Virus record (IMG/VR): IMGVR_UViG_3300046615_000768 | Span: 1-64,000 of that record | DNA from: a virus | Lineage: Duplodnaviria > Caudoviricetes | Reading direction: 5' to 3' (one strand) | DNA: 64,000 bases | Part shown: piece after piece, positions 4,268 to 48,888 of the stretch | How positions within the stretch are numbered: position 1 is the first letter of the stretch | Layout: every line of letters starts with the position of its first letter | Notes under the pieces: model-generated | Database searches by the model: none | Told to the model about the DNA's origin: nothing | What the model saw: only the letters and a program-made list of their open reading frames with translations | Made by a program: the position numbers and the translations under genes

Positions 4268-4276
4268 GCCAGTGCC

Positions 4277-5562: not shown

Positions 5563-5586
5563 GTGTCGTCGTGGTTGTGGTGGAAA

Positions 5587-6380: not shown

Positions 6381-6678
6381 GCTCGATCTCGGCGATCATC
6401 TGCGCGGCTTCTTCGCCTTCGACCTTCTTGATCACGCTGTTTCCGAGCCCGAGCCCAACCAGAAAGTCGTTGAGCGTGCGCATGAACATTTCGTCACGGT
6501 CCTCGCCTCTCGATGCCTCGTTCTCGACGAGGCGATTTGCAAACAGACCGAACAGGTGTATCGCCATGCGCGGGTGCATTTCCATCCGCAACATCATGTT
6601 CCCGATCGTCTCCAGGAATTCCTTTGATATCGCCGCTGCCTCATCAGGGGTGCGGTCGGGTTTAGCTTGGTCTGACAT
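6352..6678 (-). CDS. Hypothetical protein, paralog of 5587-5868
   Basis: HPRMAIHLFG...FLVGLG. Confidence 0.65.
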   Translation of the reverse strand: MSDQAKPDRTPDEAAAISKEFLETIGNMMLRMEMHPRMAIHLFGLFANRLVENEASRGEDRDEMFMRTLNDFLVGLGLGNSVIKKVEGEEAAQMIAEIERETGEHPIQ

Positions 6679-6690
6679 TTTTGGTCCTAG

Positions 6691-7065
6691 TTATTTGCGT
6701 GGAATGATCCACTGCGTGGTGATGAGCAAGCAGAACGCCGACATGGCCGCGATAACCCAGCTCCCTTCGATGACCGCGTTGATCGTGGCATAGGCGTTGC
6801 TGATTCCCGTCACCCACTGCAAGACGAGAAGCGTCCGGCGTCGGGCCCACCACGGGCGGGGCTGGTCCGATACCGGGCTATGGAGCAGGACCCCGACCTG
6901 TTCCAGCACGGCGTCGGCCTCTTGCAGCAGCATCGCCTGACGCCTGGTGTTCAGGAAGCGCACGATCGGGTGCTTGTCCGGGCTCTTCAATGCCTTGGCC
7001 CGTTCGAGCAGGGCTTCTGCACGGGCCAGCAGCTCGACCACCTGTGCGCCGTCGTTCATCGCCAT
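6691..7065 (-). CDS. Hypothetical membrane protein
   Basis: Start MAMNDG overlaps the upstream TGA; two C-terminal hydrophobic helices. Confidence 0.55.
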   Translation of the reverse strand: MAMNDGAQVVELLARAEALLERAKALKSPDKHPIVRFLNTRRQAMLLQEADAVLEQVGVLLHSPVSDQPRPWWARRRTLLVLQWVTGISNAYATINAVIEGSWVIAAMSAFCLLITTQWIIPRK

Positions 7066-7379
7066 CAATGTTTCCTCACCGGGATCGCCTCGGCCTTCAC
7101 GTCCCCGTCCTCGCCGTCGTCGACCACCTGGATGATCCCGCTCGGCATGTGCAGCACTTGCAGGAACTCGCGCAACATCATCGTGCGCGCCTGATCCAGG
7201 GTCATCTTCGGCTCGCGCGACATCACACTTGCCGCCACCCCGCGACAGGCCAGGGACAGCGCAGCCACCGAATGCAGCCACGGCATGTCCCCGTATTCCG
7301 GCTTGCCGACCGTCTCGATCAGGTCCGCGGCCAGTTTCGTCGTCAGTTCGGCCTGCTCTTCCGTCATGCCCCGCGTCAT
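7065..7379 (-). CDS. Hypothetical protein
   Basis: Operon packing. Confidence 0.6.
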   Translation of the reverse strand: MTRGMTEEQAELTTKLAADLIETVGKPEYGDMPWLHSVAALSLACRGVAASVMSREPKMTLDQARTMMLREFLQVLHMPSGIIQVVDDGEDGDVKAEAIPVRKH

Positions 7380-7624
7380 TGCTTGCCCGCGCCGGCCGGG
7401 AGGATCGTCTCGATGTCCTCGCGCGCGGTGAAGCGCACCAGCCGAACGCGCACGCCCGCCGTGTCGGCGACAAGCTGCGCATCCTTGCGCATCAGCGGCA
7501 GCAGCGCTTCGTTCCCCGTGATCAGCGGATACAGCATCGAACCCTTGCTGACAGCGGGCACGCCGTCACCCTCCTTTTCCTCGGCCAAAAAAGCGAACAC
7601 AGCGTCGATTGCGCGGTAAGTCAT
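7376..7624 (-). CDS. Hypothetical protein, first gene of the leftward accessory operon
   Basis: Follows an AT-rich promoter region. Confidence 0.6.
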   Translation of the reverse strand: MTYRAIDAVFAFLAEEKEGDGVPAVSKGSMLYPLITGNEALLPLMRKDAQLVADTAGVRVRLVRFTAREDIETILPAGAGKQ

Positions 7625-7654
7625 AATTAACAGGCGGTAATAAAAAGAAAAAAC

Positions 7655-7684
7655 ATTCTATAGACTGCTTATGCGATATAGCAA
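7655..7684 (-). promoter_or_regulatory. Putative sigma70 promoter
   Basis: Minus strand TTGCTA-N18-TAGAAT upstream of the start at 7624. Confidence 0.5.
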
Positions 7685-7775
7685 TACTTTTTGAGACGAT
7701 AAGGCAATAGATTCAGCACATTAGCGCACCCTGCAACAGCAGGGGCGCACTGTTACTTTTGGTGATAATCAGCAA

Positions 7776-8726
7776 TTATTCAGGCACTGTAAGAGTGTGA
7801 ATATTCTCTTCCAACAATTTGTGAAGCCGTTCGTAGTCGAAGTTACCGCTCAAGCGCGCGCCTTCGGGCGTCACGATCAGGCGTGCACCGCCGGCAAGGT
7901 CGTACTCGCGGCGCTCGGTCCTTGCCTTGGGGTTGATCTGCTTTTCAATCCATCCCACAACGGCAGATTGGCTTAAAGCCTGTTCGTCCTCCTCCTGCTC
8001 TTCGTTCAGTCGTGCTCGTTCAGCCAGGCGTACCAGCGCGTCGAAAACGATCATGCTGTGTTTCTCACAGTAGGGTCGAAGGTTGCGCGCCAAGTTGTAG
8101 CCGATCAGGGTGGGCCGGTCATCCAGGAGCTGCTGCGCTGCTGGCGGTAGTGCACCGAACGAATCGAGCGCCTGAACGGTAGTGCGAGAAATGTTCAGCA
8201 CACGCGCCATCTGCGTGTTGTTCGGGACCGCGCCGGTGGTCTTGAGCATTGCCATGTGTTTGTACAGCTCCCAATCCGAGAGCCCTTTACGGGTCGTGTT
8301 CTCGCTTGTGAGCGCGCGCGCAGCTTCGGTGTCGGTGAGATAGCGGACAAACGCAGGGATCTCGCTGCGCCCGAGAATGCGAAACGCATCGACGCGGTGG
8401 TGGCCAGCGACCAGCTCGAACAGTGGCAGGGGGGGTGTCATAGTATGACACCCCTCTTCCAGTGCTTGAGCGGGCAGCGGACGAACGATAATGGGATCGA
8501 GAAGGCCTTCGGCACGGATGCTTTCGACCAGGTTCTCCATATAGTCCTCGTCACGCTTGCCCCTCGACTGGAACGGTGAGCGCACCAGCTGCTCCAGTTG
8601 CAGCAGGATCGGCGCGCTCGACTCTTGGCCAGCTCGGCCGAGGATCGTGGTGGCTACGTCCTTCTGCAGGTTCTGGCGCGGGCGGTTTCCCAGCGCAGCG
8701 GTCAGTTCCTTTTTCATCTGGTTCAT
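7776..8726 (-). CDS. parB: ParB family partition protein
   Basis: IVRSPFQSR-like box I (LVRSPFQSR), LVESIRAEGLLDPIIVRP, FELVAGHHR (CTP-binding GxxR), downstream HTH. Confidence 0.92.
   Translation of the reverse strand: MNQMKKELTAALGNRPRQNLQKDVATTILGRAGQESSAPILLQLEQLVRSPFQSRGKRDEDYMENLVESIRAEGLLDPIIVRPLPAQALEEGCHTMTPPLPLFELVAGHHRVDAFRILGRSEIPAFVRYLTDTEAARALTSENTTRKGLSDWELYKHMAMLKTTGAVPNNTQMARVLNISRTTVQALDSFGALPPAAQQLLDDRPTLIGYNLARNLRPYCEKHSMIVFDALVRLAERARLNEEQEEDEQALSQSAVVGWIEKQINPKARTERREYDLAGGARLIVTPEGARLSGNFDYERLHKLLEENIHTLTVPE
8432..8454. promoter_or_regulatory. Palindrome GGGGTGTCAT-AGT-ATGACACCCC, candidate parS site inside parB
   Basis: Perfect 10-bp arms; identical core at 9631-9653. 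Confidence 0.65.
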
Positions 8727-9514
8727 GCTACCTCCTCTGCGCGGCCAGCAAGGCCGAGGACAGCCATGACTTCGCGCGCCAGTTCGACCACGTTACGCGA
8801 GACTTGATGCTGGACGTTGGACTTGAGGATCGTTTTGCCGAGGGCTTCGGCCTGCTGGACCGCCGTGCTGTTCGGGATCTGAGTCTTGAAGATATGGTCG
8901 AAATACTGGTGCGCGCTGCCGGCGATCAGGCGGCAAACCGTAGTGCGCCCGTCGTACATGTTGAGCACCGCGCCGTAGCGCAGCGGCCGCGGATTAACGC
9001 TCTTGGCCTGTTCGATGAAGTCGATCATGTCGTCACTCCCGGACAATGACAGCCTGGAGCCGGTGTCGATTGGCACCAGGACCAAGTCGGCCGCGACCAG
9101 TGCGTTCGCGGTCAGGCTGCCCAGCGACGGCGGACAGTCGATCACGACCACGTCGTAGAGCTCGGCGACCTGCTTGAGCTTGTCCGACAGGAGCCGTGTC
9201 GACGTGAACGGGTTCAGTTGCAACGTGCGCTCGATGTTGCTCAGCTTGAGGGTTGAGCCAAGCAGGTGCACGCCGTCGATCCGGGTCTCGGTAATGATCG
9301 CCTCGGCCATCGGCGCCTCGCCCGACAGTACGCGCTCGACCGGCACCGGCGGCGCGAAATCATACGAGTAGGCGATCCGCGTTGCATTGAACTGCGGGTC
9401 GAAGTCGATCAATAGCACCGACAGGCCGGCGCGCGCGATCGCATCGCACAGATTCAGGCTGGCCGAGGTTTTGCCGACCCCGCCCTTGTGTGTAGCCACG
9501 GCGATAGTTTTCAT
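8723..9514 (-). CDS. parA: ParA family partition ATPase
   Basis: Deviant Walker A KGGVGKT, LIDFDPQ, VVIDCPP. Confidence 0.95.
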   Translation of the reverse strand: MKTIAVATHKGGVGKTSASLNLCDAIARAGLSVLLIDFDPQFNATRIAYSYDFAPPVPVERVLSGEAPMAEAIITETRIDGVHLLGSTLKLSNIERTLQLNPFTSTRLLSDKLKQVAELYDVVVIDCPPSLGSLTANALVAADLVLVPIDTGSRLSLSGSDDMIDFIEQAKSVNPRPLRYGAVLNMYDGRTTVCRLIAGSAHQYFDHIFKTQIPNSTAVQQAEALGKTILKSNVQHQVSRNVVELAREVMAVLGLAGRAEEVA

Positions 9515-20306: not shown

Positions 20307-20580
20307 CACCAGCAATAAGACAGCGCACTGGTCGGATCGGAAGACGGCAGCGGTGCGTAGTGAGGCCCCTACTGTGGGATCTGTTTCTGAAACAGGGGCG
20401 ATCGGCGGCGAAGACAGCACCGATGAAACGAAAGGCTGTCACGTCATGCGGCTCCGTCGGAGGGGAAGCGTGTAAAGGCAGGCGTAGGAAGGCTACGTCT
20501 GCCCACCATCAGAGGCAACGGGTTTAGCAGGCGGTAGCACAGAGCTAGAAGGCATGCAGTACCACTAACCAGGGGAACAA

Positions 20581-32932: not shown

Positions 32933-33436
32933 TTAGTCTTTCAATGCGTCGATCTGGTCGCTGCTGATCCAGACACGTGCTGTCACATAGGCGCCCCACG
33001 GGTGCACGACATTCCCGGAAGGATCGACGTTGTCGATTTCGACGAATGCGTCTTCGTTGACCACCACGTTCGGAGGCAGCGGCTGCGCACGCGCAATGTC
33101 GCGGACTTCGTCGGCCTCTGGCAGCGCCCCGTAGTGGGTCAGGCCAGGCACCACGCCGTGATCGCCGTGGAAATGCAGCAGCTCAAGTTCGAGGCGGTTT
33201 GCGAACTCGAACACCAAGGCCAGATCCTGCGGCAGCAGCGCGAGCGGCTCGGGCTGTTCGGCGGTGGGGTAGGGCAGCGACACGAACAGGCCACCACGGC
33301 AGACGGCGATGTCGAAGTACGGCCACCCCGGCAGGGTTTCGTCCTTGCGAACCAGCCGATTGGCCGCTGTTTGCAGCTGACTGATGGTCGATTCGGTCAG
33401 GTGGTACAGGCACAGTTGCAGGTGAGTCTGAATCAA
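32933..33436 (-). CDS. Hypothetical protein
   Basis: C-terminal VNEDAFV...GAYVTARVWIS pattern. Confidence 0.6.
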   Translation of the reverse strand: MIQTHLQLCLYHLTESTISQLQTAANRLVRKDETLPGWPYFDIAVCRGGLFVSLPYPTAEQPEPLALLPQDLALVFEFANRLELELLHFHGDHGVVPGLTHYGALPEADEVRDIARAQPLPPNVVVNEDAFVEIDNVDPSGNVVHPWGAYVTARVWISSDQIDALKD

Positions 33437-33506
33437 TTCGTTCTCCGTCGGTTATCGGGGACAGCCCCCGCGTGAGCGCCCGCAAGAAGCAGGCGCTGAC
33501 ACTGGA

Positions 33507-33710
33507 TCAGTCCTCTTCTTCGAGCTGCGCTTCGACCCACTGCCAGTAGCCGCGCAGGGTCTGTTCCATATCGACGGCCTGACGCCAGTCGGTGCGCCGG
33601 TATTGCGGATGCTCGCCGTTGTCGCGCTCGGTGCTGTACTTCTGGCACAGCTCCTCGGCGGTCAGCAGCCGGTCGGCGCGTGCCAGTTCAGGCGGATAGT
33701 GCAGGCTCAT
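33507..33710 (-). CDS. Hypothetical protein
   Basis: GEHPxYxRxDW...TxxGYWxWV pattern. Confidence 0.6.
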   Translation of the reverse strand: MSLHYPPELARADRLLTAEELCQKYSTERDNGEHPQYRRTDWRQAVDMEQTLRGYWQWVEAQLEEED

Positions 33711-33720
33711 GGTGTTCTCC

Positions 33721-34233
33721 TCAGAGTTGGCCGTGTTCGACGAAAGAGTAGGACTGGCTGGCGGTGACGATGATGTGGTCGAGGATGCGCACGTCGACGA
33801 GGGCAAGGGCCTGCGTCATCGTGCGGGTCAAAAGAAGATCGGCTTCGCTCGGGTCCGGCGTGCCCGACGGATGGTTATGCGCGAGAAGCAAACTGTTCGC
33901 GTTATGCCGCAGGGCAGACTTCACCACTTCCCGAGGGTAGACGCTGGTCTGTGTCAGCGAACCACGGAACATTTCCTCCGTGGCGATCACGCGATTTTTT
34001 ACGTCCAAGAACAGCACGCAGAACACTTCATGGTCGCGGCTCCCGATGGACAGGCGCAGATAGCTACGCGCCGCATCAGGGCTCCCCAGCAGCTCCCCAG
34101 GTACGCGCATGCGGCGTTCGAGGATGGACAGCGCATGCCGGATCGTGGCGTCTTCGCGCTGACGTTTCAGCTCGTCGGGGTCCGGCGCCGCGACATACGC
34201 GACCTGGGCTTCGGTTGCCTTGCTCGTTCTCAT
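33721..34233 (-). CDS. radC: RadC-like JAB domain protein
   Basis: E-x-F...LFxGS...[27 protein letters not shown]. Confidence 0.92.
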
Positions 34234-34291
34234 CAAATCCTCCGTTATGGGTGGGTGACAGGGCGCCTGCAGGAGACTACCCCACGTCATC

Positions 34292-34320
34292 ACTATATAG
34301 CATGATGCTACATAGCTCAA
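34292..34320 (-). promoter_or_regulatory. Sigma70 promoter with a palindromic operator in the spacer
   Basis: TTGAGC-N17-TATAGT on the minus strand; TAGCAT-N-ATGCTA palindrome at 34298-34310. Confidence 0.7.
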
Positions 34321-34360
34321 GGCCTATCTGCGCACGTGCGGACGGCGGAAGGACACACAC

Positions 34361-35029
34361 ATGGACGACACCCCGAAGATGAAGGCCGATTGGGAGGCCA
34401 TTGAGAAGCAGTACCGCGCTGGCGTTCTGTCGCTGCGCGAGATCGCACGGCAGCATGGCGTGACCGACGCAGCCATTCGCAAGCGGGCCAAGGTCAATGC
34501 GTGGGAGCGTGACCTGACGGCGAAGGTGCAGGAGAAGGTACGGCTAGAGCTGGTACGCACAGAGGTACGCACCCCCAACACGCGCGAGCAAGTGCGTACC
34601 GAGCGCGAGATCGTCGACAGCGCCGCGGCCACCGTCGTCCAGGTGGTGCGCGAACACCGCAAGGACATCAGCAACGGTCGCACGCTTGTATCGCTGCTGG
34701 CGTCCCAGCTGCTCGACGTGGCTGGCCACCGCGATATCTTCATGGACGCGATCGAGGCCGAAACCGCTGACGACGAATCGGGCGAGCGCCGCGCCAAGAT
34801 GCTCAAGGCCGTCTCGCTGCCGGTGCATGCGGCGACGATCCGGGACCTGTCGAACGCGATGAAGAACCTCGTGACGCTGGAGCGGCAGGCGTTCAGCGTC
34901 GGCGACGCACCGATCGAGAAGCCGGAGGAGCCGGCGAGCGCGACCCAGGTCGACGCCGGCTTCGCCGACCTGCGCGCCGCGTTCAACAAGCGCCTGAAAA
35001 AAGACGACGATGCCCCTGCAGCTTCCTGA
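34361..35029 (+). CDS. terS: Terminase small subunit-like protein
   Basis: DWEAIEKQYRAGVLSLREIARQHGVTDAAIRKRAK HTH; directly upstream of terL. Confidence 0.75.
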   Translation: MDDTPKMKADWEAIEKQYRAGVLSLREIARQHGVTDAAIRKRAKVNAWERDLTAKVQEKVRLELVRTEVRTPNTREQVRTEREIVDSAAATVVQVVREHRKDISNGRTLVSLLASQLLDVAGHRDIFMDAIEAETADDESGERRAKMLKAVSLPVHAATIRDLSNAMKNLVTLERQAFSVGDAPIEKPEEPASATQVDAGFADLRAAFNKRLKKDDDAPAAS

Positions 35030-36635
35030 GGAATTCCGCCAGTCCCTGCAAGCGGCACCGTTCGAGGCGGTCGCCGACCTGTGGGAGATCATCGAGCGCA
35101 CCTATGGCATCGAGGGCAAGGCCTGGCTCGGGCGCAACGACCGCTATTACCTGTTGATCCGATTGCTGCACCGGCTTGATGCCGTGCACCCGTGGCTGTA
35201 CGCCCGGTGCCGAGAAGTGGAGGAGCGCCCAGACGGTCATCTTGACCTCTGGGCGCGATGTTGAGAACACTACAAAAGCACGGTCATTACCTACGCCGGC
35301 ATCATCCAGGCCTTGATCATCGACCCGGAAATCACGGTCGGGATTTTCAGCCACACGAAGCCAGTCGCACGTAAATTCCTGCTGCAGATCAAACAGGAGC
35401 TGGAGGCCAACGCGGACCTGAAACTGGTCTACCCGGACGTGTTCTACTCGGACCCGCGCAACGAGTCGCCGAAGTGGTCCGAAGAGAAGGGGATCGTCGT
35501 CAAGCGGCGCTCAAATCCCAAAGAAGCCTCTGTCGAGGCACACGGCCTTGTCGATGGACAGCCCACTGGCGCCCACTTCCTCCTGCGCGTGTATGACGAC
35601 GTTGTCACCCGCGAGTCGGTGAGTACCCCGGAGCAGGTGGCCAAGACGACCTCCGCATGGGAGTTGAGCGATAACCTCGGCGCCCGCGGCCCCGACGGCA
35701 AGAGCCGCGCATGGCACGTGGGCACCCGTTACTCGTTTCAGGACAGCTACCAGTCGATCATCGACCGCGGCGCGCTCATTCCGCGCCTGTACGCAGCCAC
35801 CGACAACGGTATGCCGGACGGGAAGCCGATCCTGCTGACGCCCGAGGCCTGGGCCGATCGCAAGCTCAAACAGGGCCCGGCCACCATCGCCGCGCAGATG
35901 CTGCAGAACCCTGCAGCCGGCAACCAGGCGATGTTCAGGAAGGAGTGGCTCAGCTTCATCGACATCAGGCCGGCCACCCTGAACGTCTACATCATGGTCG
36001 ACCCCGCCCACTCGAAGAAAAAGGGCAGCGACAACACCGCCATGGCCGTCGTCGGCATCGACTCGGGCGGGAACAAGTACCTGCTCGATGGGTTCAGGCA
36101 CAAAATGGGCCTGCGCGAACGCTGGGAGGCCATGCGTGGCCTGCGCAAGGTGTGGATCGCACAGCCAGGCGTGCAAATGGTCAAGGTGGGCTATGAGCGT
36201 TACGGCCTTCAAGCCGACCTCGAATATTTCGAGGAGCAGATGCAGCGCGAGAAGGATGCCTTCCACATCGACGAGCTGAATTGGGTCAGCGAGGGCGGGC
36301 AATCGAAAGACGATCGCGTGCAAAGGCTCCAGCCGGACTTCATGTCCAAGCGGTTCTACCTGGCCGCGGTGGTGCAGGGCGAGACGGCGAACCAGAAGCG
36401 CATCCGCGAGCAGGGCCAGTCGTTCAGGATCTTCCGGCCGGTCAACCGCAGGGACCACGAGGGCAATATCTACAGCCTGAACAAGGGCTTCCTCGAAGAA
36501 TATCTGACGTACCCGTTCAGCGCGAAGAAGGACCTCATTGACGCAGTCTCCCGAGTGTTCGACTTGGAGCCGGTCGCGCCGACCATCATCGACGAACGGG
36601 TCCTCGAACCCGAGGTCTACGATGACGGCATGTAA
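35010..36635 (+). pseudogene. terL: Terminase large subunit with an in-frame TGA at 35262-35264 (readthrough, defect or sequence error)
   Basis: One frame from 35010 to 36635 apart from the TGA; LWAR-C-*-EHYKST (Walker A), VYDDVV (Walker B), nuclease IMVDPAHS and DLIDAVS. Confidence 0.85.
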
Positions 36636-36671
36636 TAGAATCGGTCGGGACAGGCAACCAACGAGGACAGC

Positions 36672-36899
36672 ATGACCGACCGTGATGTGAAGGGCATTTT
36701 CTGTGACAGCGCCTATCTCGCGGCCGCGCTGCGCAACATGGCCGACGAAGCACACGCCGATGGCCAGCACGCGGACAACTACCACCTCGAAGAAGCAGCG
36801 GACCACATCGAGTGCCTGTACGCCGATGCCTGCGACATGCAACGCACCATCAAGCGCCTGCGCGCCGAGCTGGCCGCAAAAGAAAAGCGCGCTGCCTGA
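36672..36899 (+). CDS. Hypothetical protein
   Basis: RBS GAGGA. Confidence 0.55.
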   Translation: MTDRDVKGIFCDSAYLAAALRNMADEAHADGQHADNYHLEEAADHIECLYADACDMQRTIKRLRAELAAKEKRAA

Positions 36900-36935
36900 C
36901 TGGCCAGCGCGCCTGCAAGAGGGAGACGAAGCCGG

Positions 36936-37418
36936 CTAGTGCATGCTGCCGTCATGCTTCTCAAGCGTCCGGCTCTGCCGGATCATCTCGGCCTGCTCCT
37001 TGCCGATCCGGATCAGCTCGGCGCCACTGCCAACTGGCCACGGGAACTGCTCCCAATCGGTGGCCGCGGCCTGCAGCTCCGCAAGTGGCGCGTTCTCGAT
37101 CATGGCCAAGCACTCTTCAAGGTGCAGGTACTGCTGGTCAGGCTCCATCGGGCGCTGTTCCTGATTGCGCAGCATGTCGAGCGCACAGAGGGCAGCTAGC
37201 TGCCAGGCAGCGATAGCCGCGTCGAGATAGGTACGAAAGCGCATCATCGCCACGGCCTGTGCCGCAGCGACCTTGTCCGGCACGAACGGATTCACACTCG
37301 GTTCCGGCGGCAGCAGCGCCGTCACCACGGCAGCTGCGTCTTTCGCCACTTCGAGCACAGTCGCATCGAGGGCAAGGTGGGCTACGTCCTCTTCGCGCAT
37401 GTCACGTTGGAAGTTCAT
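36936..37418 (-). CDS. Hypothetical protein (second antisense island)
   Basis: RBS GGAG. Confidence 0.55.
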   Translation of the reverse strand: MNFQRDMREEDVAHLALDATVLEVAKDAAAVVTALLPPEPSVNPFVPDKVAAAQAVAMMRFRTYLDAAIAAWQLAALCALDMLRNQEQRPMEPDQQYLHLEECLAMIENAPLAELQAAATDWEQFPWPVGSGAELIRIGKEQAEMIRQSRTLEKHDGSMH

Positions 37419-37427
37419 GGCAGTCTC

Positions 37428-37745
37428 CTATGCGTCGACGACATGGTCGGCGAAGTGCTGCTCGATGGCCTCGGTGTCGAGGAACTGCTCGGCCCAGGCC
37501 AGCGCCTCGTCACGATCCATCGGGATCAGGTCCTCGCTGCCGGTCATGCCGTTGCTGCCGACCGGCTTGGCAAAGCGCGTCATCGGGCCACCTTCGCCGA
37601 CCAGGAAGAAGCGCCGCGACTTCGGTGACACGTACAGCGCAGCTTCCCAATCACGAAAGTCGTTGCGCCCCAGGTTCGTCGCGTACTCGCCGACCAGCGT
37701 CGCCTTGTCGCTGTCATACCGCACGCCATTGATGATCTTCTTCAT
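37428..37745 (-). CDS. Conserved mobile-element hypothetical protein
   Basis: MKKIINGVRYDSDKA...LY....FFLVGEGGPMTRFA pattern; RBS GGAGG. Confidence 0.7.
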   Translation of the reverse strand: MKKIINGVRYDSDKATLVGEYATNLGRNDFRDWEAALYVSPKSRRFFLVGEGGPMTRFAKPVGSNGMTGSEDLIPMDRDEALAWAEQFLDTEAIEQHFADHVVDA

Positions 37746-37788
37746 CGCTTCCTCCGTAGGTTGACGCGGGCACGCACCCGCTAAGTGC

Positions 37789-37817
37789 ATCGTAGTACGC
37801 ACCCGCAGGGTGCGCAA
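37789..37817 (-). promoter_or_regulatory. Putative sigma70 promoter with an overlapping palindrome
   Basis: TTGCGC-N17-TACGAT; GCACCC-GCA-GGGTGC at 37799-37813. Confidence 0.5.
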
Positions 37818-37843
37818 GGGGAATCACTCAGCCGTGCGCGGCA

Positions 37844-38000
37844 CCCCGACAAGACCCGGCAAGACCCCGACAAGACCCCGGCAAGGCCCGCTGCCTTGAC
37901 GTTTCATCTGATCCCACTACCGCGACCGCACCGAGATCACGCCGCCCGGCGCGTCCAGGCGCGTCCAGACGCGTCTTGGCGCGTCTTGGCGCGTCCAGCT
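37844..38000. repeat. Two helically phased 10-11 bp repeat tracts
   Basis: CCC(C)G(A/G)CAAG(A/G) x4 at 37844-37886; GCGTC(CA/TT)G(G/A)C-like x5 at 37951-38000. Confidence 0.75.
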
Positions 38001-38016
38001 GAACGAGGAACACGAC

Positions 38017-38286
38017 ATGAAGCCACTTCAACCCGTACTTCCGGTCCAGCCGGTCAAGTCGGTGCAGCCGGCGCGCACGGTCAAGACCGTCAAGCCGGTC
38101 GCCGCGCCGGCCAAGCCGGCCCCGATCTCGTTGCCCAAGCGCTCGAACATGGCACGGCCACCCGTGGCCAAGACCAAGCGCGTGGTGCCGAGCGTGCCGA
38201 GCGGTCGCGGCGTCGTCCGCACCGACACCCATAACGCCGCCAACCAGGTGCCGGCAGCAGCCAAGCACAAGAAGCGCGGCCTGTAA
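38017..38286 (+). CDS. Small basic Lys/Pro-rich protein
   Basis: RBS GAGGA. Confidence 0.55.
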   Translation: MKPLQPVLPVQPVKSVQPARTVKTVKPVAAPAKPAPISLPKRSNMARPPVAKTKRVVPSVPSGRGVVRTDTHNAANQVPAAAKHKKRGL

Positions 38287-38297
38287 GGAGCTATCAC

Positions 38298-38474
38298 ATG
38301 GCAGATCCGACGATCCCGAGCTTTTCCGAGCAGCTGTGGTCCGAGCAGGTGGGACTTGCAGGCGGCACCAACGAGGACGGCCCCGGCTACGTGTTCTCGT
38401 CCGGCCGCACCTTCGTCAAGACCCCGTATGACCCGCCTGTGCCGGTCCCGCTGCCCGAGGAGCCGACGCCTTGA
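38298..38474 (+). CDS. Small hypothetical protein (not in the ORF track)
   Basis: AAGGAG RBS; MADPTIPSFSEQ...PEEPTP*. Confidence 0.55.
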   Translation: MADPTIPSFSEQLWSEQVGLAGGTNEDGPGYVFSSGRTFVKTPYDPPVPVPLPEEPTP

Positions 38475-38626
38475 GCGAGCTGCGCGACCTCGCACGCGAC
38501 GAATACGACGCCCTGCCCGAGGCGATCCGCTGGAACTACACCTGGGACCAGTACCAGTGGCTGTCCGACGCCGAGAAGGCGCGCCTGATCCAAATCGAGA
38601 CGGAGCCCGAACAGTATGTCGACTAG
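38471..38626 (+). CDS. Small hypothetical protein (not in the ORF track)
   Basis: TTG start overlapping the upstream TGA; EYDALPEAIRWNYTWDQYQWLSD. Confidence 0.5.
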   Translation: MSELRDLARDEYDALPEAIRWNYTWDQYQWLSDAEKARLIQIETEPEQYVD

Positions 38627-38840
38627 CCGTCACCCCAGGTTCGAGAAGCGCATCGAGCCGCGCGTCGTCACCTACCGCCTGACCCGCTACCTGAACGCGG
38701 TCCCGTTCGGCATCGAGCTGTGTGTCGTGCGCGAAGAGTACGAGCTGGGCCGCGCCGTCGTGGCACGGCGCCTGCTGCGGGCCCGCACGAAGCTGCGCCA
38801 GATGGCCGCTGCCGTCGCCACCAACAGGGAGTTCGCATGA
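38616..38840 (+). CDS. Hypothetical protein
   Basis: Coupled operon. Confidence 0.5.
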   Translation: MSTSRHPRFEKRIEPRVVTYRLTRYLNAVPFGIELCVVREEYELGRAVVARRLLRARTKLRQMAAAVATNREFA

Positions 38841-39190
38841 CCCGACTACTGAACGGCCTCGACGAGACCGCCATCACCAGCGCGCACGACCACACGCTGG
38901 CGAAAGAAATGGCCGACGCACTGCTGGACCACTACCCCGGCCACCTGTGGGCGGTATCCGCTGACTCCTCGACGGGCATGTGCGACATCAGGAACCTGCT
39001 GTTCAGCGGCGAGTGGGGCTACCGCCTCAAGATCCCGCTGATCTACAGCGCGTCGGCCTTCAAGCAGGACGTGATCCGCGCCGGTGGCGAGATCCTCGAA
39101 CGCTTCCGTACCGCGCGTGGCCGCTTCGATGAGGGCCACTACGCCGGTTTGCAAACCAACTTCGCGGGCGACTTCAAGCCTGACCTCTAA
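38837..39190 (+). CDS. Conserved phage protein upstream of the portal
   Basis: LxxHYPGHLWAV...WGY.L...RAGGEILER. Confidence 0.7.
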   Translation: MTRLLNGLDETAITSAHDHTLAKEMADALLDHYPGHLWAVSADSSTGMCDIRNLLFSGEWGYRLKIPLIYSASAFKQDVIRAGGEILERFRTARGRFDEGHYAGLQTNFAGDFKPDL

Positions 39191-42013
39191 ATGACCTCTA
39201 CCCCCGACTGGCTGACACTGGCGCGCGACGCCTACACTGCCTCGACCGCCTATTTTGATGCGTCGATCCGGCAGCAGATCGAAGCCGATCTGCGCCAGTC
39301 GCAAGGGCAGCACCCGACCGGCTCGAAGTACCTGTCCGACCGCGGCCGCTCGCGCCTGTTCCGACCCAAGACGCGCGCCACGATCCGCAAGAATGAAGCC
39401 CAGGCCGCCGAGGCCTTCTTCTCGACCACGGACGTGGTGGCGATCTCCCCCGAGAACGACAACGACCCGGTGCAAAAGGCGAGCGCTGCCGTCATGGGCG
39501 AGCTGCTGCAGTACAGGCTCACCAAGAGCATCCCGTGGTTCCTCACCCTCGTCGGTGCCTATCAGGACGCGCAGACCGTCGGCGTCGTGGCCTCGTACCA
39601 GTATTGGGAGTACAACGAGAAGCGGAAGATCGACCGGCCAGCGATCCGCCTGATCCCTGTGGAGAATTTGCGCTTCGACCCCGGTGCGAACTGGACCGAC
39701 CCGGTCGGCACCAGCCCCTACATCGTGGAGCTGATCCCGATGTATTTGGGCGAGGTCCGTCGCCGCATGAACAGCCCCGACCCCAAGACCGGCGAGGCCA
39801 AGTGGAAGAACCTGCCCGACGCCGTCATCCTGACCGCGACGAAGTCCTACGGCGACACGATCCGCATGCAGCGCGAGGGCCAGCGCACCGATTCCAAGTA
39901 CCAGACGCAGGCCAACAATTCGTACAACATCGTCTGGGTGCACAAGAACATCGTCAGCGTCGACGACGAGGACTTTGTCTATTACACGCTGGGCGTCGAC
40001 CACCTGCTGTCGGACCCGCGCCCGCTCTCCGAAGTCTACTTCCACGGCAAGCGCCCGTATGTGATCGGTTCCTGCGTGGTCGAGACGCACAAGAACTACC
40101 CGTCCGGCGTGCCGCGCCTGACGCGCGACGTGCAGGCCGAGATCAACGAAGTGGCGAACTCGCGCATCGACAACGTCAAATTGGCGATGAATAAACGCTA
40201 CTTCGCGCGCAGGAACAAACAGGTCGATATCCGCAGCGTCACGCGCAACGTGCCGGGATCAGTGACCCTGATGCAGGACACGGACGATGTGAAGGTCGTC
40301 GAATTCAACGACGTGACCGGCTCCAGCTACAAGGAGCAGGAGGTGTTGAACCTCGATTTCGACGACATGGCCGGTGCCTTCTCGGGATCGAGCGTACAGA
40401 GCAACCGCAAGCTGAACGAGACGGTCGGCGGCATGAACCTGCTGTCCACCACGGCCAATCAGGTGTCCGGCTACCAGCTGCGGACCTTCGTGGAGACGTG
40501 GGTTGAGCCCGTGCTGCGCCAGATCGTCATGCTCGAACAGTATTACGAAACGGACGAAACAGTCCTCGGCCTGTGTGGCCAGGCTGCGGGCCTGTTCCAG
40601 AAGTTCGGCATCGACCAGATCACCGACGACATGCTGATGCAAGAGTTCACCTTGAATGTGAATGTTGGCATGGGAGCAACGAATCCGCAGGAACAGGTGC
40701 AACAGTTCATCAGCGGCATGCAGGCACTGCGCGACATTCTCGCCGACGGTTCCCTCATGGGCCTGGGCCTGAAAGTGGACGAAGTCATCACCGAACTGTT
40801 CGGCAAGCTTGGCTACAAGGATGGCAGTCGCTTCTTCGAGCTGGAACAGCAGGACCCGCAGATCGCGCAGATGCAGCAGACCATCGACCAGCTCAAGGCG
40901 GATCTGGAGAAGAAGATGCCGCAGGAGCTGCTGGAGGCGACGATCCGCCGCATCGACGCCGAGATCGCGTCCATGGGCGTGCGCGACAAGGTGGGCAACG
41001 CCGAAGCGGTCAAGAAGGGCTCCGAGGCGCAGTTCTCGGCCATGCAGACGGCGGAAGTCATCGCCGCCGTGCCAGCCGTGGCACCGATCGCGGACGAACT
41101 GATGAAGGCAGCGGGCTACGTGGTCCCGACGCCGACCGGCGTCGACCCGAACTTCCCGCAGCCGGCCACGCCGGACGCCGCGCTCGGCATCGAGGCGGTC
41201 AAGAACAGGCGCACGGGCATGGCCTTCATGCCTGGAGCGCCCGGACTGCCGGCGCCGTCGACCACCCTGCAGCCAGCCGCGCCCGCGGACTCGAACACCG
41301 GCCAGCGGCAAGGCATCGAGACGGTACGCCCCGACAGCATCGCCCAGGCAGCGTTCGCCGACGGTGGACTGGTCCCGGCCCCGGACGAATACCTGACCTC
41401 GTACACCGCGCCGCACCAGTATTCCGCGCAGCCGGTCCAGCAGGTCGTGCCCCCTTCGGTAATGCAGCAGATGACGCGGGCGATTGACAAGAACGGCGGC
41501 GACTTCATCAACGCGAGCGGCCAGCTCGACAACCTGCACGGCTACAACCTGGCAGCAGCGGGGATCGAGACGAACCTGCCGTACAGCCAGATCAAGGCCG
41601 AAGTGAACAACTCGATGGTCAAGAGCGCGCTGAGTGAGTCGGCGTTCAACACCGGCAAGATGGGCGGCAGGATGAGCGAGGTCGTTGGCTACGCCGACGG
41701 GGGCGTCATCAGCGGCCCCGGCACCGGCACCTCGGATTCGATTGCCGCCATGGCTGCAGGACAGCCACTGGCCGTCTCGAACGGCGAATACCACGTGCCG
41801 GCCGCAGTGGTCGAAGCGCTCGGCGCCGACTTCTTCGAGCGCCTGATCGAGGACTTCCACACGCCGACCGGCTCGCCAGACCCCGCCATGCCCGTCTCGG
41901 GCGAGCCGCTGGCCATGGAACCGGGAGATTTCGTGGTCCCGGCTGATGTCGTCGAGGCCTTGGGCCGTGACTTCTTCGACAAGCTCGTCGCCACGTTCGG
42001 AGGTGCGCAATGA
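39191..42013 (+). CDS. Portal protein with a long C-terminal extension
   Basis: Position between terL and scaffold/capsid; LFRPKTR...E, FxWEY, DPxA, ETxGG...G..LRTFVETW motifs of podovirus-type portals. Confidence 0.8.
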   Translation: MTSTPDWLTLARDAYTASTAYFDASIRQQIEADLRQSQGQHPTGSKYLSDRGRSRLFRPKTRATIRKNEAQAAEAFFSTTDVVAISPENDNDPVQKASAAVMGELLQYRLTKSIPWFLTLVGAYQDAQTVGVVASYQYWEYNEKRKIDRPAIRLIPVENLRFDPGANWTDPVGTSPYIVELIPMYLGEVRRRMNSPDPKTGEAKWKNLPDAVILTATKSYGDTIRMQREGQRTDSKYQTQANNSYNIVWVHKNIVSVDDEDFVYYTLGVDHLLSDPRPLSEVYFHGKRPYVIGSCVVETHKNYPSGVPRLTRDVQAEINEVANSRIDNVKLAMNKRYFARRNKQVDIRSVTRNVPGSVTLMQDTDDVKVVEFNDVTGSSYKEQEVLNLDFDDMAGAFSGSSVQSNRKLNETVGGMNLLSTTANQVSGYQLRTFVETWVEPVLRQIVMLEQYYETDETVLGLCGQAAGLFQKFGIDQITDDMLMQEFTLNVNVGMGATNPQEQVQQFISGMQALRDILADGSLMGLGLKVDEVITELFGKLGYKDGSRFFELEQQDPQIAQMQQTIDQLKADLEKKMPQELLEATIRRIDAEIASMGVRDKVGNAEAVKKGSEAQFSAMQTAEVIAAVPAVAPIADELMKAAGYVVPTPTGVDPNFPQPATPDAALGIEAVKNRRTGMAFMPGAPGLPAPSTTLQPAAPADSNTGQRQGIETVRPDSIAQAAFADGGLVPAPDEYLTSYTAPHQYSAQPVQQVVPPSVMQQMTRAIDKNGGDFINASGQLDNLHGYNLAAAGIETNLPYSQIKAEVNNSMVKSALSESAFNTGKMGGRMSEVVGYADGGVISGPGTGTSDSIAAMAAGQPLAVSNGEYHVPAAVVEALGADFFERLIEDFHTPTGSPDPAMPVSGEPLAMEPGDFVVPADVVEALGRDFFDKLVATFGGAQ

Positions 42014-44162: not shown

Positions 44163-44191
44163 TCCATCTTTCTTACTAGGAGTACACAATC

Positions 44192-45902
44192 ATGGCAGGT
44201 CAAGTCTGGCTCACCAACAGCCTGGGTAAATGAAAGCTGCCCCGTCGCCGAGCAATCGGTGACTGATAATTGCGTGAATTGACAGGGAACCCCGACCGCG
44301 TAAAGGCGAGGGCAATCTGCAGCCAAGCGCCGCGCAAGCGGTGAAGGTTCAACGATCATCCCCGAGGGGGGAGTAGGGCCAAGTGGCCCGAAGCGCGCAA
44401 CGTCCCAAGCGGACGATGAAATGATCTGGTCTTGCAGGTAACTGCAAGCTGCCGATGTGGGAATCGGCGGCGCCGGCGTAACGACCCGGCGTGAACTCAT
44501 CAGGGCTATATGTGGTCCCCCAACCTCTCCAAAGTGCTGCGCATGGCAGTGCAGCCCCTCACCAAGTTCCGCCAGTTCAGCGACATCAAGGATGCCGCTG
44601 TCCAGGGCAAGGGCATGGGCGAGGCGTTCCATTAACATACTGGTGGAACTAAAACCGACTCTGATTGACTTCAACCCCCGGCAGCGGGAAAGAAGGGGCA
44701 AGCAAGCCGCAAGGCTGTGCAGCCTGAGAGACTAAGCGAGTTGGCCCCGGCAACGGGGATGCGATAGTCCGAACACGGCATATAACCTGATGAAAGCCGT
44801 GAGGTGGCAGAAATGACCACCCGCCAGCGTCAACCACGCTGGTCATCAAGTAACAGACTGTGGAACGTTTACAGCGATGTGGCAACGCAAGGCACCACCC
44901 TCACCGAGGGCGTCGCCATGCCGACCACGAACTTCGTGATCACGCAGGGCACGATGACGGTCACGGAACTCGGCAATAGTGTTCCGTACAGCTCCAAGCT
45001 GGACGACCTGTCGGAGCAGCCGGTCAAAGAGATCATCTCGAAGGTGTTGAAAAATGACGCGAAAAAGGCGTTCGACACCGCAGCCGAGGCGCAGTTCCGC
45101 CTCACGCCGCTGCGCGTCGTGCCAACCGGCGGCACCTCCACCAGCTCGGTCACGTTGACCACCAACGGCACCGCCGCTGCGGCCAACAACGTCGCTCTGG
45201 GCAAGAACCACGTGAAGTCGATCGTCGACATCATGAAAGAACGAAACGTGCCGCCGTATCTGCAGGACGACTACATTTCGCTCGCCCACCCGACGACCTT
45301 CCGCCAGGTGAAGAACGATCTGGAGCAGGTCCACCAGTACGTCGATCAGGGTTTCCAAATGATCCTGAACGGCGAGATCGGCCGATACGAAAGTGTCCGC
45401 TTCGTGGAGCAGACCAACATCAGCAAGAGGGGCTTCGCATCGGGCGCCTCGAACTGGGCGTATTTTTTTGGGGCCGATACCGTGGCAGAAGGCATCGTTA
45501 TTCCTGAGGAGATGCGCGGGATGATCCCAGGCGACTACGGTCGTCAGCGTGGCGTGGCATGGTACTACTTGGGTAAATAACACTGCCCCGTTCTGGCGAA
45601 AGCCAGGACTGATAACTTCGTGAACTCAGGGGAACTCCCACCCGCACCATGCGGAGGACAATCCTGATCTGAGCCCCGCAAGGGGAAAGAGCAACGACCA
45701 TCCCGGAAGCGGGAGTAGGGCCAAGCGGCCCGAAGTGCGAAGCGCCTTCACTGGCGATGATATGGTCTGATCTTGCAGGTAACTGCAAGCTGCCGAGAGG
45801 CGGCGCAGGGAGTAGCGACCCGGCGTGAACATAATGGGTTTCGGTATCGTCCACACCAACCCGCAGCAGTCGCGGATCGTGATGTGGGACTCGACGACCT
45901 AA
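44192..45902 (+). CDS. Major capsid protein (N4-gp56-like), spliced: join(44192-44227, 44504-44632, 44861-45574, 45837-45902), 314 aa
   Basis: RBS AGGAG; the joined exons read MAGQVWLTNSLG|GYMWSPNLSKVLRMAVQPLTKFRQF...GEAFH|WNVYSDVATQG...GNSVPY...GEIGRYESVRFVEQ...DYGRQRGVAWYYLG|GFGIVH...WDSTT*, all in frame. Confidence 0.9.
44228..44503 (+). ncRNA. Group I intron 1 (276 nt, no ORF; has P7.1/P7.2, IA-like)
   Basis: 5' exon ends in U and the intron ends in G; P1 GGGU/GCCC; P2 with GCAA loop; P3 UUGCGUG/CGCGCAA; P7 GAUCA (44354) / UGAUC (44422); P9 CUUGCAG-GUAA-CUGCAAG. Confidence 0.9.
44633..44860 (+). ncRNA. Group I intron 2 (228 nt, no ORF; lacks P7.1/P7.2)
   Basis: P1 UUCCAU/GUGGAA with a terminal U.G pair; P3 CCGACUC/GAGUUGG; canonical P7 GACUA (44730) / UAGUC (44765); P8 with GCAA loop; terminal G at 44860. 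Confidence 0.9.
45575..45836 (+). ncRNA. Group I intron 3 (262 nt, no ORF; sister of intron 1)
   Basis: 5' exon ends GGU; P2 with GAAA loop; P3 CUUCGUG/UGCGAAG; P7 GACCA (45696) / UGGUC (45763); P7.2 GGGCC-AAGC-GGCCC; same P9 as intron 1; terminal G at 45836. Confidence 0.9.
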
Positions 45903-45921: not shown

Positions 45922-45953
45922 AAAGCCTGTCCCTTCGGGGGCAGGCTTTTTTT
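45922..45953 (+). terminator. Rho-independent terminator after the capsid gene
   Basis: AAAGCCTGTCCC-TTCG-GGGGCAGGCTTT followed by a T-run. Confidence 0.85.
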
Positions 45954-45970: not shown

Positions 45971-46450
45971 CTAGTGGACCTTCGGATTCGGCTTGGCCGA
46001 TGCGAAGAGCTTCAGGACATCATCCGCAGCGCCGTCACCGAACATGCAATCCTCGGACAACGCCTGGTCCACTTCGCAGTAAGCGTCAAGCGCCTTGCAG
46101 GCGCGCGCAAACGATAAGACGAGCGACCCAGCCATCGAATACGGGTGGGCCACGTCCAGATCAAGCTCACTGCCGGCGAAGTGCATCGCCGTCGCCACCA
46201 CGTGATGCACCTCGATATACGGGTTCATGTATTGCGAACCAGGAGCGGCACCCTCGTCGGCCACGCGCACGGCGTCCCGGATGACCGCCCTCGCCGCTGA
46301 AAAGGCGGAAAGAACATCGCGGGTAGCAGCGAGCGTGTCGCCGTCATAGGCCTTTGCGCTCTTGATGCACTCGTGCGCCGCGCTCAATGCCCGCAGCGCG
46401 ATTGCATCGTTTTCAGCTTCCGAAAATTGAAGCCATTCCGTTTTTTCCAT
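45971..46450 (-). CDS. Moron-like hypothetical protein on the opposite strand
   Basis: Isolated minus-strand ORF that shares the bidirectional terminator; different codon usage. Confidence 0.5.
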   Translation of the reverse strand: MEKTEWLQFSEAENDAIALRALSAAHECIKSAKAYDGDTLAATRDVLSAFSAARAVIRDAVRVADEGAAPGSQYMNPYIEVHHVVATAMHFAGSELDLDVAHPYSMAGSLVLSFARACKALDAYCEVDQALSEDCMFGDGAADDVLKLFASAKPNPKVH

Positions 46451-46526
46451 GTGCCGCTCCATCAGGTTGGGGAGCGCCGATTCTAGCCGTAGTTGTGACC
46501 AAAAGAAACGCTACAAGGAGATTATT

Positions 46527-47003: not shown

Positions 47004-47254
47004 TGGCGGCGCCGACTTTCGACCGAAACCGTCCACACGGCACCGTGTTCGGCGACCCCGAAGGACGCATCTACCACCAGGGCGATCATTTCTTCCGTGG
47101 TGACGGCACGCTCTGGACCGAGCAGGCCACCGCCCAGCCCGACGCCGACGAACCGGCCAAGCCAGTGTCGACCAAGAAGAAGACAGCCGCCGCGGCCGAT
47201 CCGGCGCCGGCCGCAGTCGATGCGCAGCTCGACGCACAGATGGGTGCCGCTTGA
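47003..47254 (+). CDS. Small hypothetical protein
   Basis: TAATG coupling; FDRNRPHGTVFG...YHQGDHFF. Confidence 0.6.
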   Translation: MAAPTFDRNRPHGTVFGDPEGRIYHQGDHFFRGDGTLWTEQATAQPDADEPAKPVSTKKKTAAAADPAPAAVDAQLDAQMGAA

Positions 47255-48888
47255 TCTGGCGCGCCACCGACAGGGAGGGCGAGGAATCCCGAAAATTCAA
47301 GTACGAGGTCGTGCAGTACACGCGCGGCCTCGGCCTTGATCTCGGCTGCGGACCCCACAAGGCTTTCCCGCACATGATCGGCGTGGACAGCAAGAAGGAC
47401 ACCGAGCTGTTCGGCATCCAGATGGAGCCCGATAACGTCGTCGACGACGCCTCGAAGCTGCCCATGATCCCGGACGGGAAACTGGACTTCGTGTTCTCCT
47501 CGCACCTGCTGGAACACATCGAGGACTATCGCGCGGCCCTGGCCGAGTGGTGGCGCGTCATCAAGGCCGGCGGCCACCTGGTGCTGTACCTGCCAGACCG
47601 CAACCTGTACCCGAACATTGGACAACCGGGCGCGAACCCGGACCACAAACACGACTTCATCCCCGACGACATCGTCGAAGCCGTCACCAGCCTCGGCACG
47701 GGTTACGACCTGATGATGAACGAGGTGCGCGACGAGCGCGACGAATACTCCTTCCTGCTGGTGTTCAGGAAGCGCGAGGATGGTTTGTACACCTATCCGT
47801 GCGACGACGTAGCAACGACGGAAGGCTCGTCGTGGCCGGCCAAGACCGTGTGCGTGTCGCGCTTCGGTGGCTTCGGCGACATGCTCATGATGAGCAATAT
47901 CCTGCCGCAGCTGAAACGCGAGGGCTATCACGTCACCGTCAACACCACGCCCAAGGGCATGAGCATCGTCGAACACGACCCGAACATCGACGCGTTCCTG
48001 CTGCAGGACGACAACCAGGTGCCGAACCACGAGCTGCCGCTGTTCTGGGACGCGATCTCGCGCCGCTACGACAAGTTCATCCAGCTCTCCGAAAGCATCG
48101 AAGGCACCTTGCTCGCCATCCCCGGCCGCGCCAATCACATGTGGCCGCACAAGGTCCGCCACATGGAGTTGAACCGCAACTACCTCGAATGGACTTCGCA
48201 GCTGGCCGAGCTGCCTTACCACTCGGAAGCGAAGTTCTACCCGACCGACCACGAACGCGCCAAGCAGGCCGGCTACCTGGGCGGCATCCGTGCCAACCTC
48301 GTGCCGAAAGGCGACGAAATCCTGATCGGCCAGGCCTCGCCCGACGCCTTCTTCATCATGTGGGCGCTCGCCGGCTCCTCGATGCACAAGTTTTATCCGC
48401 ACATGGACGCTGTCATCGCGCGCGTGCTGATGGAAATGCCGGAAGCCATCGTGATCCTCGCCGGCGACGAGCCGTGCCAGATCCTCGAAGCGGGCTGGGA
48501 GCTGGAGCCGCGCGTGTACCGCATGTCGGGCAAGCAGACCATCCGCGAGACGCTGACGCTGGCGACGATGGTTGACCTGGTTGTCGGTCCCGAGACGGGC
48601 GTGCTGAACGCCGTCGCGTTCGAGGACAACGCCAAGATCGTGCTGATGTCGCACTCGTCCATCGAGAACCTGACCAAGCACTGGACCAACGTGACGAGCC
48701 TGTCGGCGCCGTTCGACCCGGACAACCGCGTCTGCAACAATCAAAGTTGCCACCGCCTGCACTACGGCTCGGCCTTCTGCGTCGAGGACAAGGACACCGG
48801 CGCCTCGGCCTGCCAGGTGGCGATCCCGCCGCTGTGGGTGTTCAGCTCGATCGAGAACGCCTACCGCGCGTGGAAGGAGGCCAAATGA
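47251..48888 (+). CDS. Class I SAM methyltransferase fused to a GT9 (heptosyltransferase-like, GT-B) glycosyltransferase
   Basis: GLDLGCG...FVFSSHLLEH..EWWRVIKAGG; GGFGDMLM; IRETLTLATMVDLVVGPETG. Confidence 0.85.
   Translation: MIWRATDREGEESRKFKYEVVQYTRGLGLDLGCGPHKAFPHMIGVDSKKDTELFGIQMEPDNVVDDASKLPMIPDGKLDFVFSSHLLEHIEDYRAALAEWWRVIKAGGHLVLYLPDRNLYPNIGQPGANPDHKHDFIPDDIVEAVTSLGTGYDLMMNEVRDERDEYSFLLVFRKREDGLYTYPCDDVATTEGSSWPAKTVCVSRFGGFGDMLMMSNILPQLKREGYHVTVNTTPKGMSIVEHDPNIDAFLLQDDNQVPNHELPLFWDAISRRYDKFIQLSESIEGTLLAIPGRANHMWPHKVRHMELNRNYLEWTSQLAELPYHSEAKFYPTDHERAKQAGYLGGIRANLVPKGDEILIGQASPDAFFIMWALAGSSMHKFYPHMDAVIARVLMEMPEAIVILAGDEPCQILEAGWELEPRVYRMSGKQTIRETLTLATMVDLVVGPETGVLNAVAFEDNAKIVLMSHSSIENLTKHWTNVTSLSAPFDPDNRVCNNQSCHRLHYGSAFCVEDKDTGASACQVAIPPLWVFSSIENAYRAWKEAK

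Follow-up and report, generated by a model that had tools for sequence, protein, structure and literature searches.

How a phage could build its capsid when the reading frame of its major capsid gene is broken in three places is the question raised by positions 44192-45902 of the 64,000-nt stretch of DNA analysed here (herein referred to as the window), which is part of a 79.8-kb IMG/VR record annotated as a provirus, ~80% complete and derived from a metagenome assembly. A preceding reading of the letters alone (the sequence-only reading) had proposed that the gene is interrupted by three self-splicing group I introns. Taking homologue alignments, covariance models and protein structure prediction together, we consider it very probable that the sole capsid gene is cut by three ORF-less group I introns belonging to two unrelated families, and that these are spliced to give an mRNA frame of 314 aa.

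The split capsid gene and its uninterrupted homologues

Joining exons 44192-44227, 44504-44632, 44861-45574 and 45837-45902 yields 945 nt encoding 314 aa and a TAA stop with zero internal stops, exactly the protein that the sequence-only reading had obtained by removing 44228-44503 (276 nt), 44633-44860 (228 nt) and 45575-45836 (262 nt). As it had also described, every insert is preceded by U and has G as its last base (3/3), none of the three (228-276 nt) contains an ORF, and the truncated ORF at 44804-45580 is present in the ORF list as a 258-aa frame. Inteins are ruled out by an in-frame stop at the start of every insert, at most two codons in (AAA-UGA, a lysine and a stop; UAA, a stop; and AAA-UAA, a lysine and a stop, respectively). 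The gene is laid out as follows:

44178..44182, plus strand: Shine-Dalgarno sequence AGGAG, 9 nt 5' of the ATG at 44192 (read from sequence)
44192..44227, plus strand: exon 1, 12 aa, MAGQVWLTNSLG, whose last codon is GGU, its U being the U•G partner in P1
44504..44632, plus strand: exon 2, 43 aa (joined frame and homologue alignment)
44861..45574, plus strand: exon 3, 238 aa, encoding most of the HK97-fold capsid protein (PHROG 1357, TIGR04387)
45837..45902, plus strand: exon 4, 21 aa and TAA (joined frame and homologue alignment)
45924..45953, plus strand: terminator-like hairpin with a 10-bp stem and UUCG loop, then a T run (read from sequence)

The hairpin at 45924-45953 aligns with the terminator portion of a weak Rfam match and is absent from the output of a simple scan. 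Directly past it lies a 163-aa ORF (45971-46462, minus strand) that is convergent to the capsid gene and has no Pfam or PHROG match.

Exon 3 matches uninterrupted genes in Vibrio phages, and the Vibrio phage D279 protein (317 aa) can be aligned to the joined product over its full length, through all three junctions (NELGGFMY in D279 vs NSLG-GYMW at junction 1, TFMWNIY vs AFH-WNVY at junction 2 and YYLGGFGI vs YYLG-GFGI at junction 3). A total of 103 related loci (labelled in the style of L004) emerged from scans of IMG/VR and GTDB genomes; most of the GTDB matches are prophages, and their hosts are Betaproteobacteria such as Zoogloea, Pseudothauera, Aromatoleum and Paraburkholderia. When plasmid records were queried with exon 3 by tblastn, no match was obtained. 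An intact gene of ~314 aa, colinear with the joined product across the junctions, is found in 79 of the 103 loci, and such colinearity of 79 uninterrupted homologues is far beyond chance. The sequence-only reading had staked its proposal on the colinearity of intron-less homologues at these junctions, and this is what we find in the 79 homologues and in D279. The nearest homologue, L004 (97% amino acid identity), is itself intron-less, and its DNA alignment to the window has gaps at exactly 44228-44503 and 44633-44860; the third gap is set off-site by MAFFT, and protein alignments place junction 3 unambiguously at YYLG-GFGI. Immediately 5' of sites 1 and 3, intron-bearing alleles have the codon GGU and L004 has GGC; the U at the splice site therefore accompanies the intron.

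The joined product is an HK97-fold, N4-gp56-type major capsid protein. Exon 3 and the L004 protein match PHROG 1357 ("major head protein") at 4.5e-17 and 2.9e-20, respectively, and TIGR04387 ("N4-gp56 family major capsid protein") at 1.6e-13 (exon 3) and 2.8e-16 (the 97% identical L004 protein). The family assignment made in the sequence-only reading is upheld, with strict TIGR04387 equivalog membership being borderline (59.7 bits for the L004 protein vs a cutoff of 60). A PDB sequence search with a full-length homologue returned chance-level matches only. With an AlphaFold2 model built from 35 homologues (mean pLDDT 64), the top Foldseek matches in the PDB are HK97-fold phage capsids (9vye, 8h89 and 8i4l, probability 1.00), the best fold matches being the capsids of Pan3, Ralstonia phage GP4 and P-SCSP1u.

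The surrounding genes follow the order TerS, TerL, portal, an acidic scaffold-like ORF and capsid, then structural and head-closure genes, and the neighbouring head genes are intact. The 79.8-kb record holds no second capsid gene, which makes the split gene the sole copy and disposes of the idea that an intact second copy renders splicing dispensable. A dN/dS of 0.045 (at dS 0.71) relative to the intron-less L004 points to purifying selection on the exons, a signal that could partly predate the insertions. Two other ORFs of this region have further profile matches: the C-terminal part (approximately aa 817-885) of the 940-aa portal ORF (39191-42013) matches tape-measure and endolysin PHROG profiles, and a 545-aa ORF in the head module (47251-48888) is weakly matched by a methyltransferase PHROG profile over aa 61-119.

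The same record carries a plasmid maintenance module (3233-9514, minus strand) alongside TerS, TerL, portal and capsid:

3233-4267, minus strand: TrfA-like initiator (1.7e-22)
7776-8726, minus strand: ParB (ParB_N, 5.4e-13)
8723-9514, minus strand: ParA-type ATPase (2.4e-42)

The presence of TrfA, ParA and ParB together with virion genes makes the phage-plasmid label given by the sequence-only reading plausible. No further copies of either intron family described below occur elsewhere on the record. An extra intron in terL was considered, since its 440-aa ORF covers just the C-terminal half of a long PHROG profile, and was rejected: the upstream ORF is TerS, and positions 33000-39500 contain no RNA family match at E ≤ 1. 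A Betaproteobacteria-1 sRNA (RF02932) is present at 20321-20444 on the plus strand (85.5 bits vs a gathering score of 49.4).

Introns 1 and 3, a pair of IA-like paralogues

Introns 1 and 3 belong to one family (family A) and contain the following elements:

44228..44503, plus strand: intron 1, 276 nt, ORF-less, IA-like group I (RF00028, 51.2 bits)
44238-44243: internal guide sequence (IGS) of intron 1
44244-44263: P2 of intron 1
44354-44359: P7 of intron 1, GAUCAU, pairing with AUGAUC inside 44416-44426
44359-44372: P7.1 of intron 1
44376-44389: P7.2 of intron 1
44401-44415: P8 of intron 1
44431-44448: P9 of intron 1
44503: terminal G of intron 1, ending its 3' extension (P9.1/P9.2)
45575..45836, plus strand: intron 3, 262 nt, ORF-less, IA-like, paralogue of intron 1 (RF00028, 52.9 bits)
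45584-45589: IGS of intron 3
45590-45609: P2 of intron 3
45696-45701: P7 of intron 3, GACCAU, pairing with AUGGUC inside 45757-45767
45701-45714: P7.1 of intron 3
45718-45731: P7.2 of intron 3
45772-45789: P9 of intron 3
45836: terminal G of intron 3

The sequence-only reading had suggested a search with Rfam covariance models, in which both of these inserts exceed the RF00028 gathering score of 50 bits, albeit narrowly, each across the full model (1-253; 51.2 bits at 44218-44448 and 52.9 bits at 45565-45789). Orthologues at the same sites in other phages reach 72-77 bits (L011, L013 and L014 at site 1; L023, with 77.2, at site 3). Applied to six family A copies, RNAalifold recovers P1 with its U•G pair, P2, P3, P4-P6, P7.1, P7.2, P8, P9 and P9.1/P9.2, and 30 of the 77 pairs are compensatory. 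P7 covaries from GAUCAU/AUGAUC in intron 1 to GACCAU/AUGGUC in intron 3 and GACUAU/AUAGUC in L011, and GGGU pairs with GCCC in P1 of introns 1 and 3, the U•G being kept in all six sequences.

Between P7 and the 3' strand of P3 lie two conserved hairpins with compensatory pairs, P7.1 and P7.2, a region that constitutes a 33-nt insertion relative to the RF00028 consensus and that places introns 1 and 3 in the IA class; they belong to subgroup IA and are IA2-like. This assignment is in keeping with the wider record, in which IA2 accounts for more than half of the group I introns of viruses and IA introns are typical of phages (PMC11835236). The two introns share 71% identity with one another vs ~80% with same-site copies in other phages, and hence group by site.

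Intron 2 and a second family of group I introns

The remaining insert represents a second family (family B), for which we propose the following structure, all of whose pairs are standard:

44633..44860, plus strand: intron 2, 228 nt, ORF-less, second group I family (covariation, fold and homologues)
44626-44632 / 44643-44649: P1, GUUCCAU/GUGGAAC, with U•G at the splice site
44655-44661 / 44738-44744: P3, CCGACUC/GAGUUGG
44669-44724: P4-P6, including a GCAA loop
44730-44734 / 44765-44769: P7, GACUA/UAGUC, crossing P3 as the group I pseudoknot
44745-44758: P8, with a GCAA loop
44759-44764: J8/7, AUGCGA
44774-44801: P9
44803-44821: P9.1
44824-44842: P9.2
44860: terminal G

By inspection, P2 is absent from this structure, as are P7.1 and P7.2. 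The Rfam search that separates introns 1 and 3 from background gives no RF00028 match to insert 2 at E ≤ 10, so that this part of the expectation set out in the sequence-only reading did not hold; close homologues in L010, L011, L013, L023, L031 and L088 likewise have no RF00028 match. A group II intron or another Rfam family is rejected for insert 2, as E ≤ 10 brings up just noise.

Evidence for the proposed structure comes instead from its fold and from covariation. The fold z-score of intron 2 is -4.1, and among four close homologues aligned with MAFFT 12 of the 59 pairs are compensatory vs 0-2 in slid controls. A covariance model built from the intron 2 structure without P7 (model R1) finds 39 copies in 33 sources; in their alignment 94.9% of cells are paired (vs 36-44% when slid) and 52 of the 59 pairs are changed on both sides, percentages that are inflated since the model fitted the alignment to the proposed structure, P7 excepted. 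The results for P7, which lies outside the model and is 100% paired across the 39 copies with six compensatory cells, and those for the four MAFFT-aligned sequences consequently weigh most. The IGS also tracks the exon to which it pairs, as GUUCCAU/GUGGAAC in intron 2, AUUCCAU/GUGGAAU in L011 and UUCCGU/GCGGAA in L010 (at a site between aa 35 and 36). Furthermore, one family B member (L134, 464-646) is matched both by model R1 (E=1.9e-23) and by RF00028 (65.4 bits). With a U•G pair in P1, a P3-P7 pseudoknot, P4-P6, P8, J8/7, P9 and a terminal G, the predicted core topology of insert 2 is that of a group I intron. The P1, P3, P7, P8 and P9 pairings that the sequence-only reading had drawn are thus present and backed by covariation in both families, and its attribution of all three inserts to group I withstands the comparison, with introns 1 and 3 passing RF00028 and intron 2 having a covariation-backed core and a relative that passes.

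Long family B versions in L023, L088 and L031 contain ORFs of 180-206 aa with a LAGLIDADG motif in peripheral loops (Pfam LAGLIDADG_3 scores 22.9 bits vs a cutoff of 22.5 in L088 and is weak in L023), which indicates that intron 2 descends, in stripped form, from a mobile group I intron; none of the three introns in the window has a homing endonuclease ORF. The intron 2 target (44618-44640 joined to 44861-44875) is a perfect 7+1+7 palindrome of 15 bp (CGTTCCA-T-TGGAACG) within the codons for F-H-W-N, and the intron sits right after the central T. Such a target would suit cleavage by a single-motif, homodimeric LAGLIDADG enzyme, as in the L023 and L088 versions, and the palindrome also explains the pairing of the 5' exon with the 3' exon in the predicted intron 2 fold. 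Intron 2 shares 91% identity with its L011 counterpart vs 80% for the exons, which hints at recent horizontal movement.

Splicing, precedents and the spread of introns in the capsid family

We hypothesize that, following late transcription, each intron would fold and its internal guide sequence would pair with the 3' end of the preceding exon, where the U at the splice site would form a U•G wobble. An external guanosine would then attack the 5' splice site, the freed exon would attack after the terminal G, and the four exons would be joined into one mRNA for the 314-aa HK97-fold capsid protein, with the in-frame stops at the intron starts possibly serving to keep ribosomes off the ribozyme cores. 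We infer from sequence that all three introns are catalytically active and spliced in vivo, and that capsid production would need three reactions.

One rival explanation accepts group I ancestry and supposes that at least one intron is inactive, leaving the capsid gene a pseudogene in a decaying, non-inducible element. Its appeal lies in the lack of a homing endonuclease in any of the three introns, in the lower scores of introns 1 and 3 (51-53 bits vs 72-77 for orthologues) and in a record that is labelled a provirus and is ~80% complete; however, every core helix is intact in the window copies (the pairs of intron 2 are all standard), the changes in P7 are compensated, U•G is kept at the splice sites and G at the intron ends, the adjoining head genes are intact and dN/dS is 0.045. 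We therefore regard decay of the gene as improbable.

It is less probable still that insert 2 is some other small mobile insertion or structured RNA, removed or tolerated by another route. Although the silence of RF00028 toward insert 2 and its six homologues speaks for such an origin, it fits poorly with a group I helix order that includes the P3-P7 pseudoknot (P7 GACUA/UAGUC), with the U•G in P1, the IGS that covaries with the exon and the terminal G, with a relative (L134, 464-646) that passes RF00028, and with LAGLIDADG genes located in peripheral loops, where classical mobile group I introns also have them; colinearity with homologues, moreover, requires excision. That the whole arrangement is an assembly artefact or chimeric contig is a concern for any metagenome assembly, but is scarcely credible here, given that independent contigs from other samples (L010, L011, L013, L014 and L023) share introns at the same sites and that the boundaries are base-exact. 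Three group I introns in a functional capsid gene hence remain the reading that we carry forward.

In T4, td, nrdB and nrdD (sunY) are nucleotide-metabolism genes with one IA2 intron per gene, two of the T4 introns encoding endonucleases of the GIY-YIG or HNH type. The window resembles T4 in its IA introns with P7.1/P7.2 and in-frame stops soon past the 5' splice site, and differs in having three introns in one capsid gene. The sequence-only reading regarded Staphylococcus phage Twort as the closest precedent, and three group I introns in one late gene, orf142, are indeed reported there (Landthaler & Shub 1999, PMC22036, as cited in PMC6669764 and PMC3706429); that priority is, however, shared with the capsid-gene introns of LittleE and Tuc2009 and the split terL of Jug phages. 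Both Twort and the window have three introns of the self-splicing group I type in a single late phage gene, predominantly of IA type; Twort is a Gram-positive virulent myovirus in which splicing was shown, whereas the window holds the capsid gene of a betaproteobacterial phage-plasmid with two unrelated intron families and predicted splicing.

Mycobacteriophage LittleE has a group I intron in its major capsid gene, with splicing established by RT-PCR and N-terminal sequencing, and mycobacteriophage BAKA has a tail-gene intron (PMC3706429); that paper also cites a capsid-gene intron of Tuc2009. Like these, the introns studied here are group I introns in a temperate-phage major capsid gene that were found by comparison with intron-less genes, with U preceding them and G as their last base, and with endonuclease-encoding and ORF-less copies both occurring. 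LittleE, unlike the window, has one intron per gene and is proven at the bench; the three introns here are known from sequence. In Jug (jumbo gut) phages, ~18.5 group I introns per genome are found, terL is in two to three fragments and splicing is seen in metatranscriptomes (PMC12880540). Here too, essential packaging or structural genes are split by small ORF-less group I introns whose load varies among close relatives, but Jug phages are 360-402 kb and belong with Bacteroidota, whereas the present phage is ~80 kb or more with introns in one gene only. Since capsid-gene introns and multi-intron phage genes are both published and at least three introns occur in the relatives L151, L207 and L127, the arrangement is genuine and not unprecedented. 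What sets it apart is that the only capsid gene of a proteobacterial phage-plasmid contains three introns drawn from two families, one family being missed by RF00028 and exposed here as a second group that the general Rfam model does not detect.

Gene callers would miss this capsid gene and give a truncated ORF only, and such phage-plasmids and prophages may consequently be scored as capsid-less or defective. If the gene is spliced as predicted, this Gram-negative, temperate and plasmid-like phage would join the few in which several ribozyme reactions are required by the most highly expressed structural gene.

Introns are unevenly spread across this capsid family. Conserved motifs of one intron family are present in 29 IMG/VR stretches and those of the other in >119, and the capsid family has at least 12 intron sites (at or near aa 12, 35, ~38-49, 53, 55, 83, ~93, ~185, ~230-236, 259, 275 and 293), with 0 to at least 4 introns per allele and none in the closest allele, L004. 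In the independent contigs L010, L011, L013, L014 and L023, these introns recur at unchanged sites and in different combinations, and the L116 allele has two interruptions. Three RF00028 matches and a gap without Rfam match are found in each of L151 (3057-6425, gap of 1.1 kb) and L207 (5507-8072, gap of 0.6 kb). In a distant, lower-GC phage, an N4-gp56-type capsid gene (L127, 1800-3310; TIGR04387 pieces and PHROG 1357) is split by three family B introns (1987-2229, 2530-2756 and 3071-3308). Such alleles, with 0 to at least 4 introns at 12 or more sites and with endonuclease-bearing and stripped copies, form a comparative system for intron gain, loss and site choice.

Introns 1 and 3 occupy two look-alike sites (UGGGU/GG). 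In each of the two families, what is common to copies at different positions in the gene is confined almost wholly to the 6-7 nt of 5' exon with which the guide sequence pairs (CCUGGGU vs CUUGGGU; GUUCCAU vs GUUCCGU). We tentatively suggest, as a possible though doubtful scenario, that the capsid family is an arena of group I spread comparable to organellar cox1 and rRNA genes, in which guide-directed reverse splicing might seed new sites and homing endonucleases (single-motif LAGLIDADG enzymes acting on the palindromic FHWN site) might only maintain introns afterwards. Dense arrangements also occur within single contigs: two RF00028 matches lie ~70 nt apart inside one gap of L207, and five family B copies are packed into 2.6 kb of one IMG/VR contig (L134, 1-2637, minus strand).
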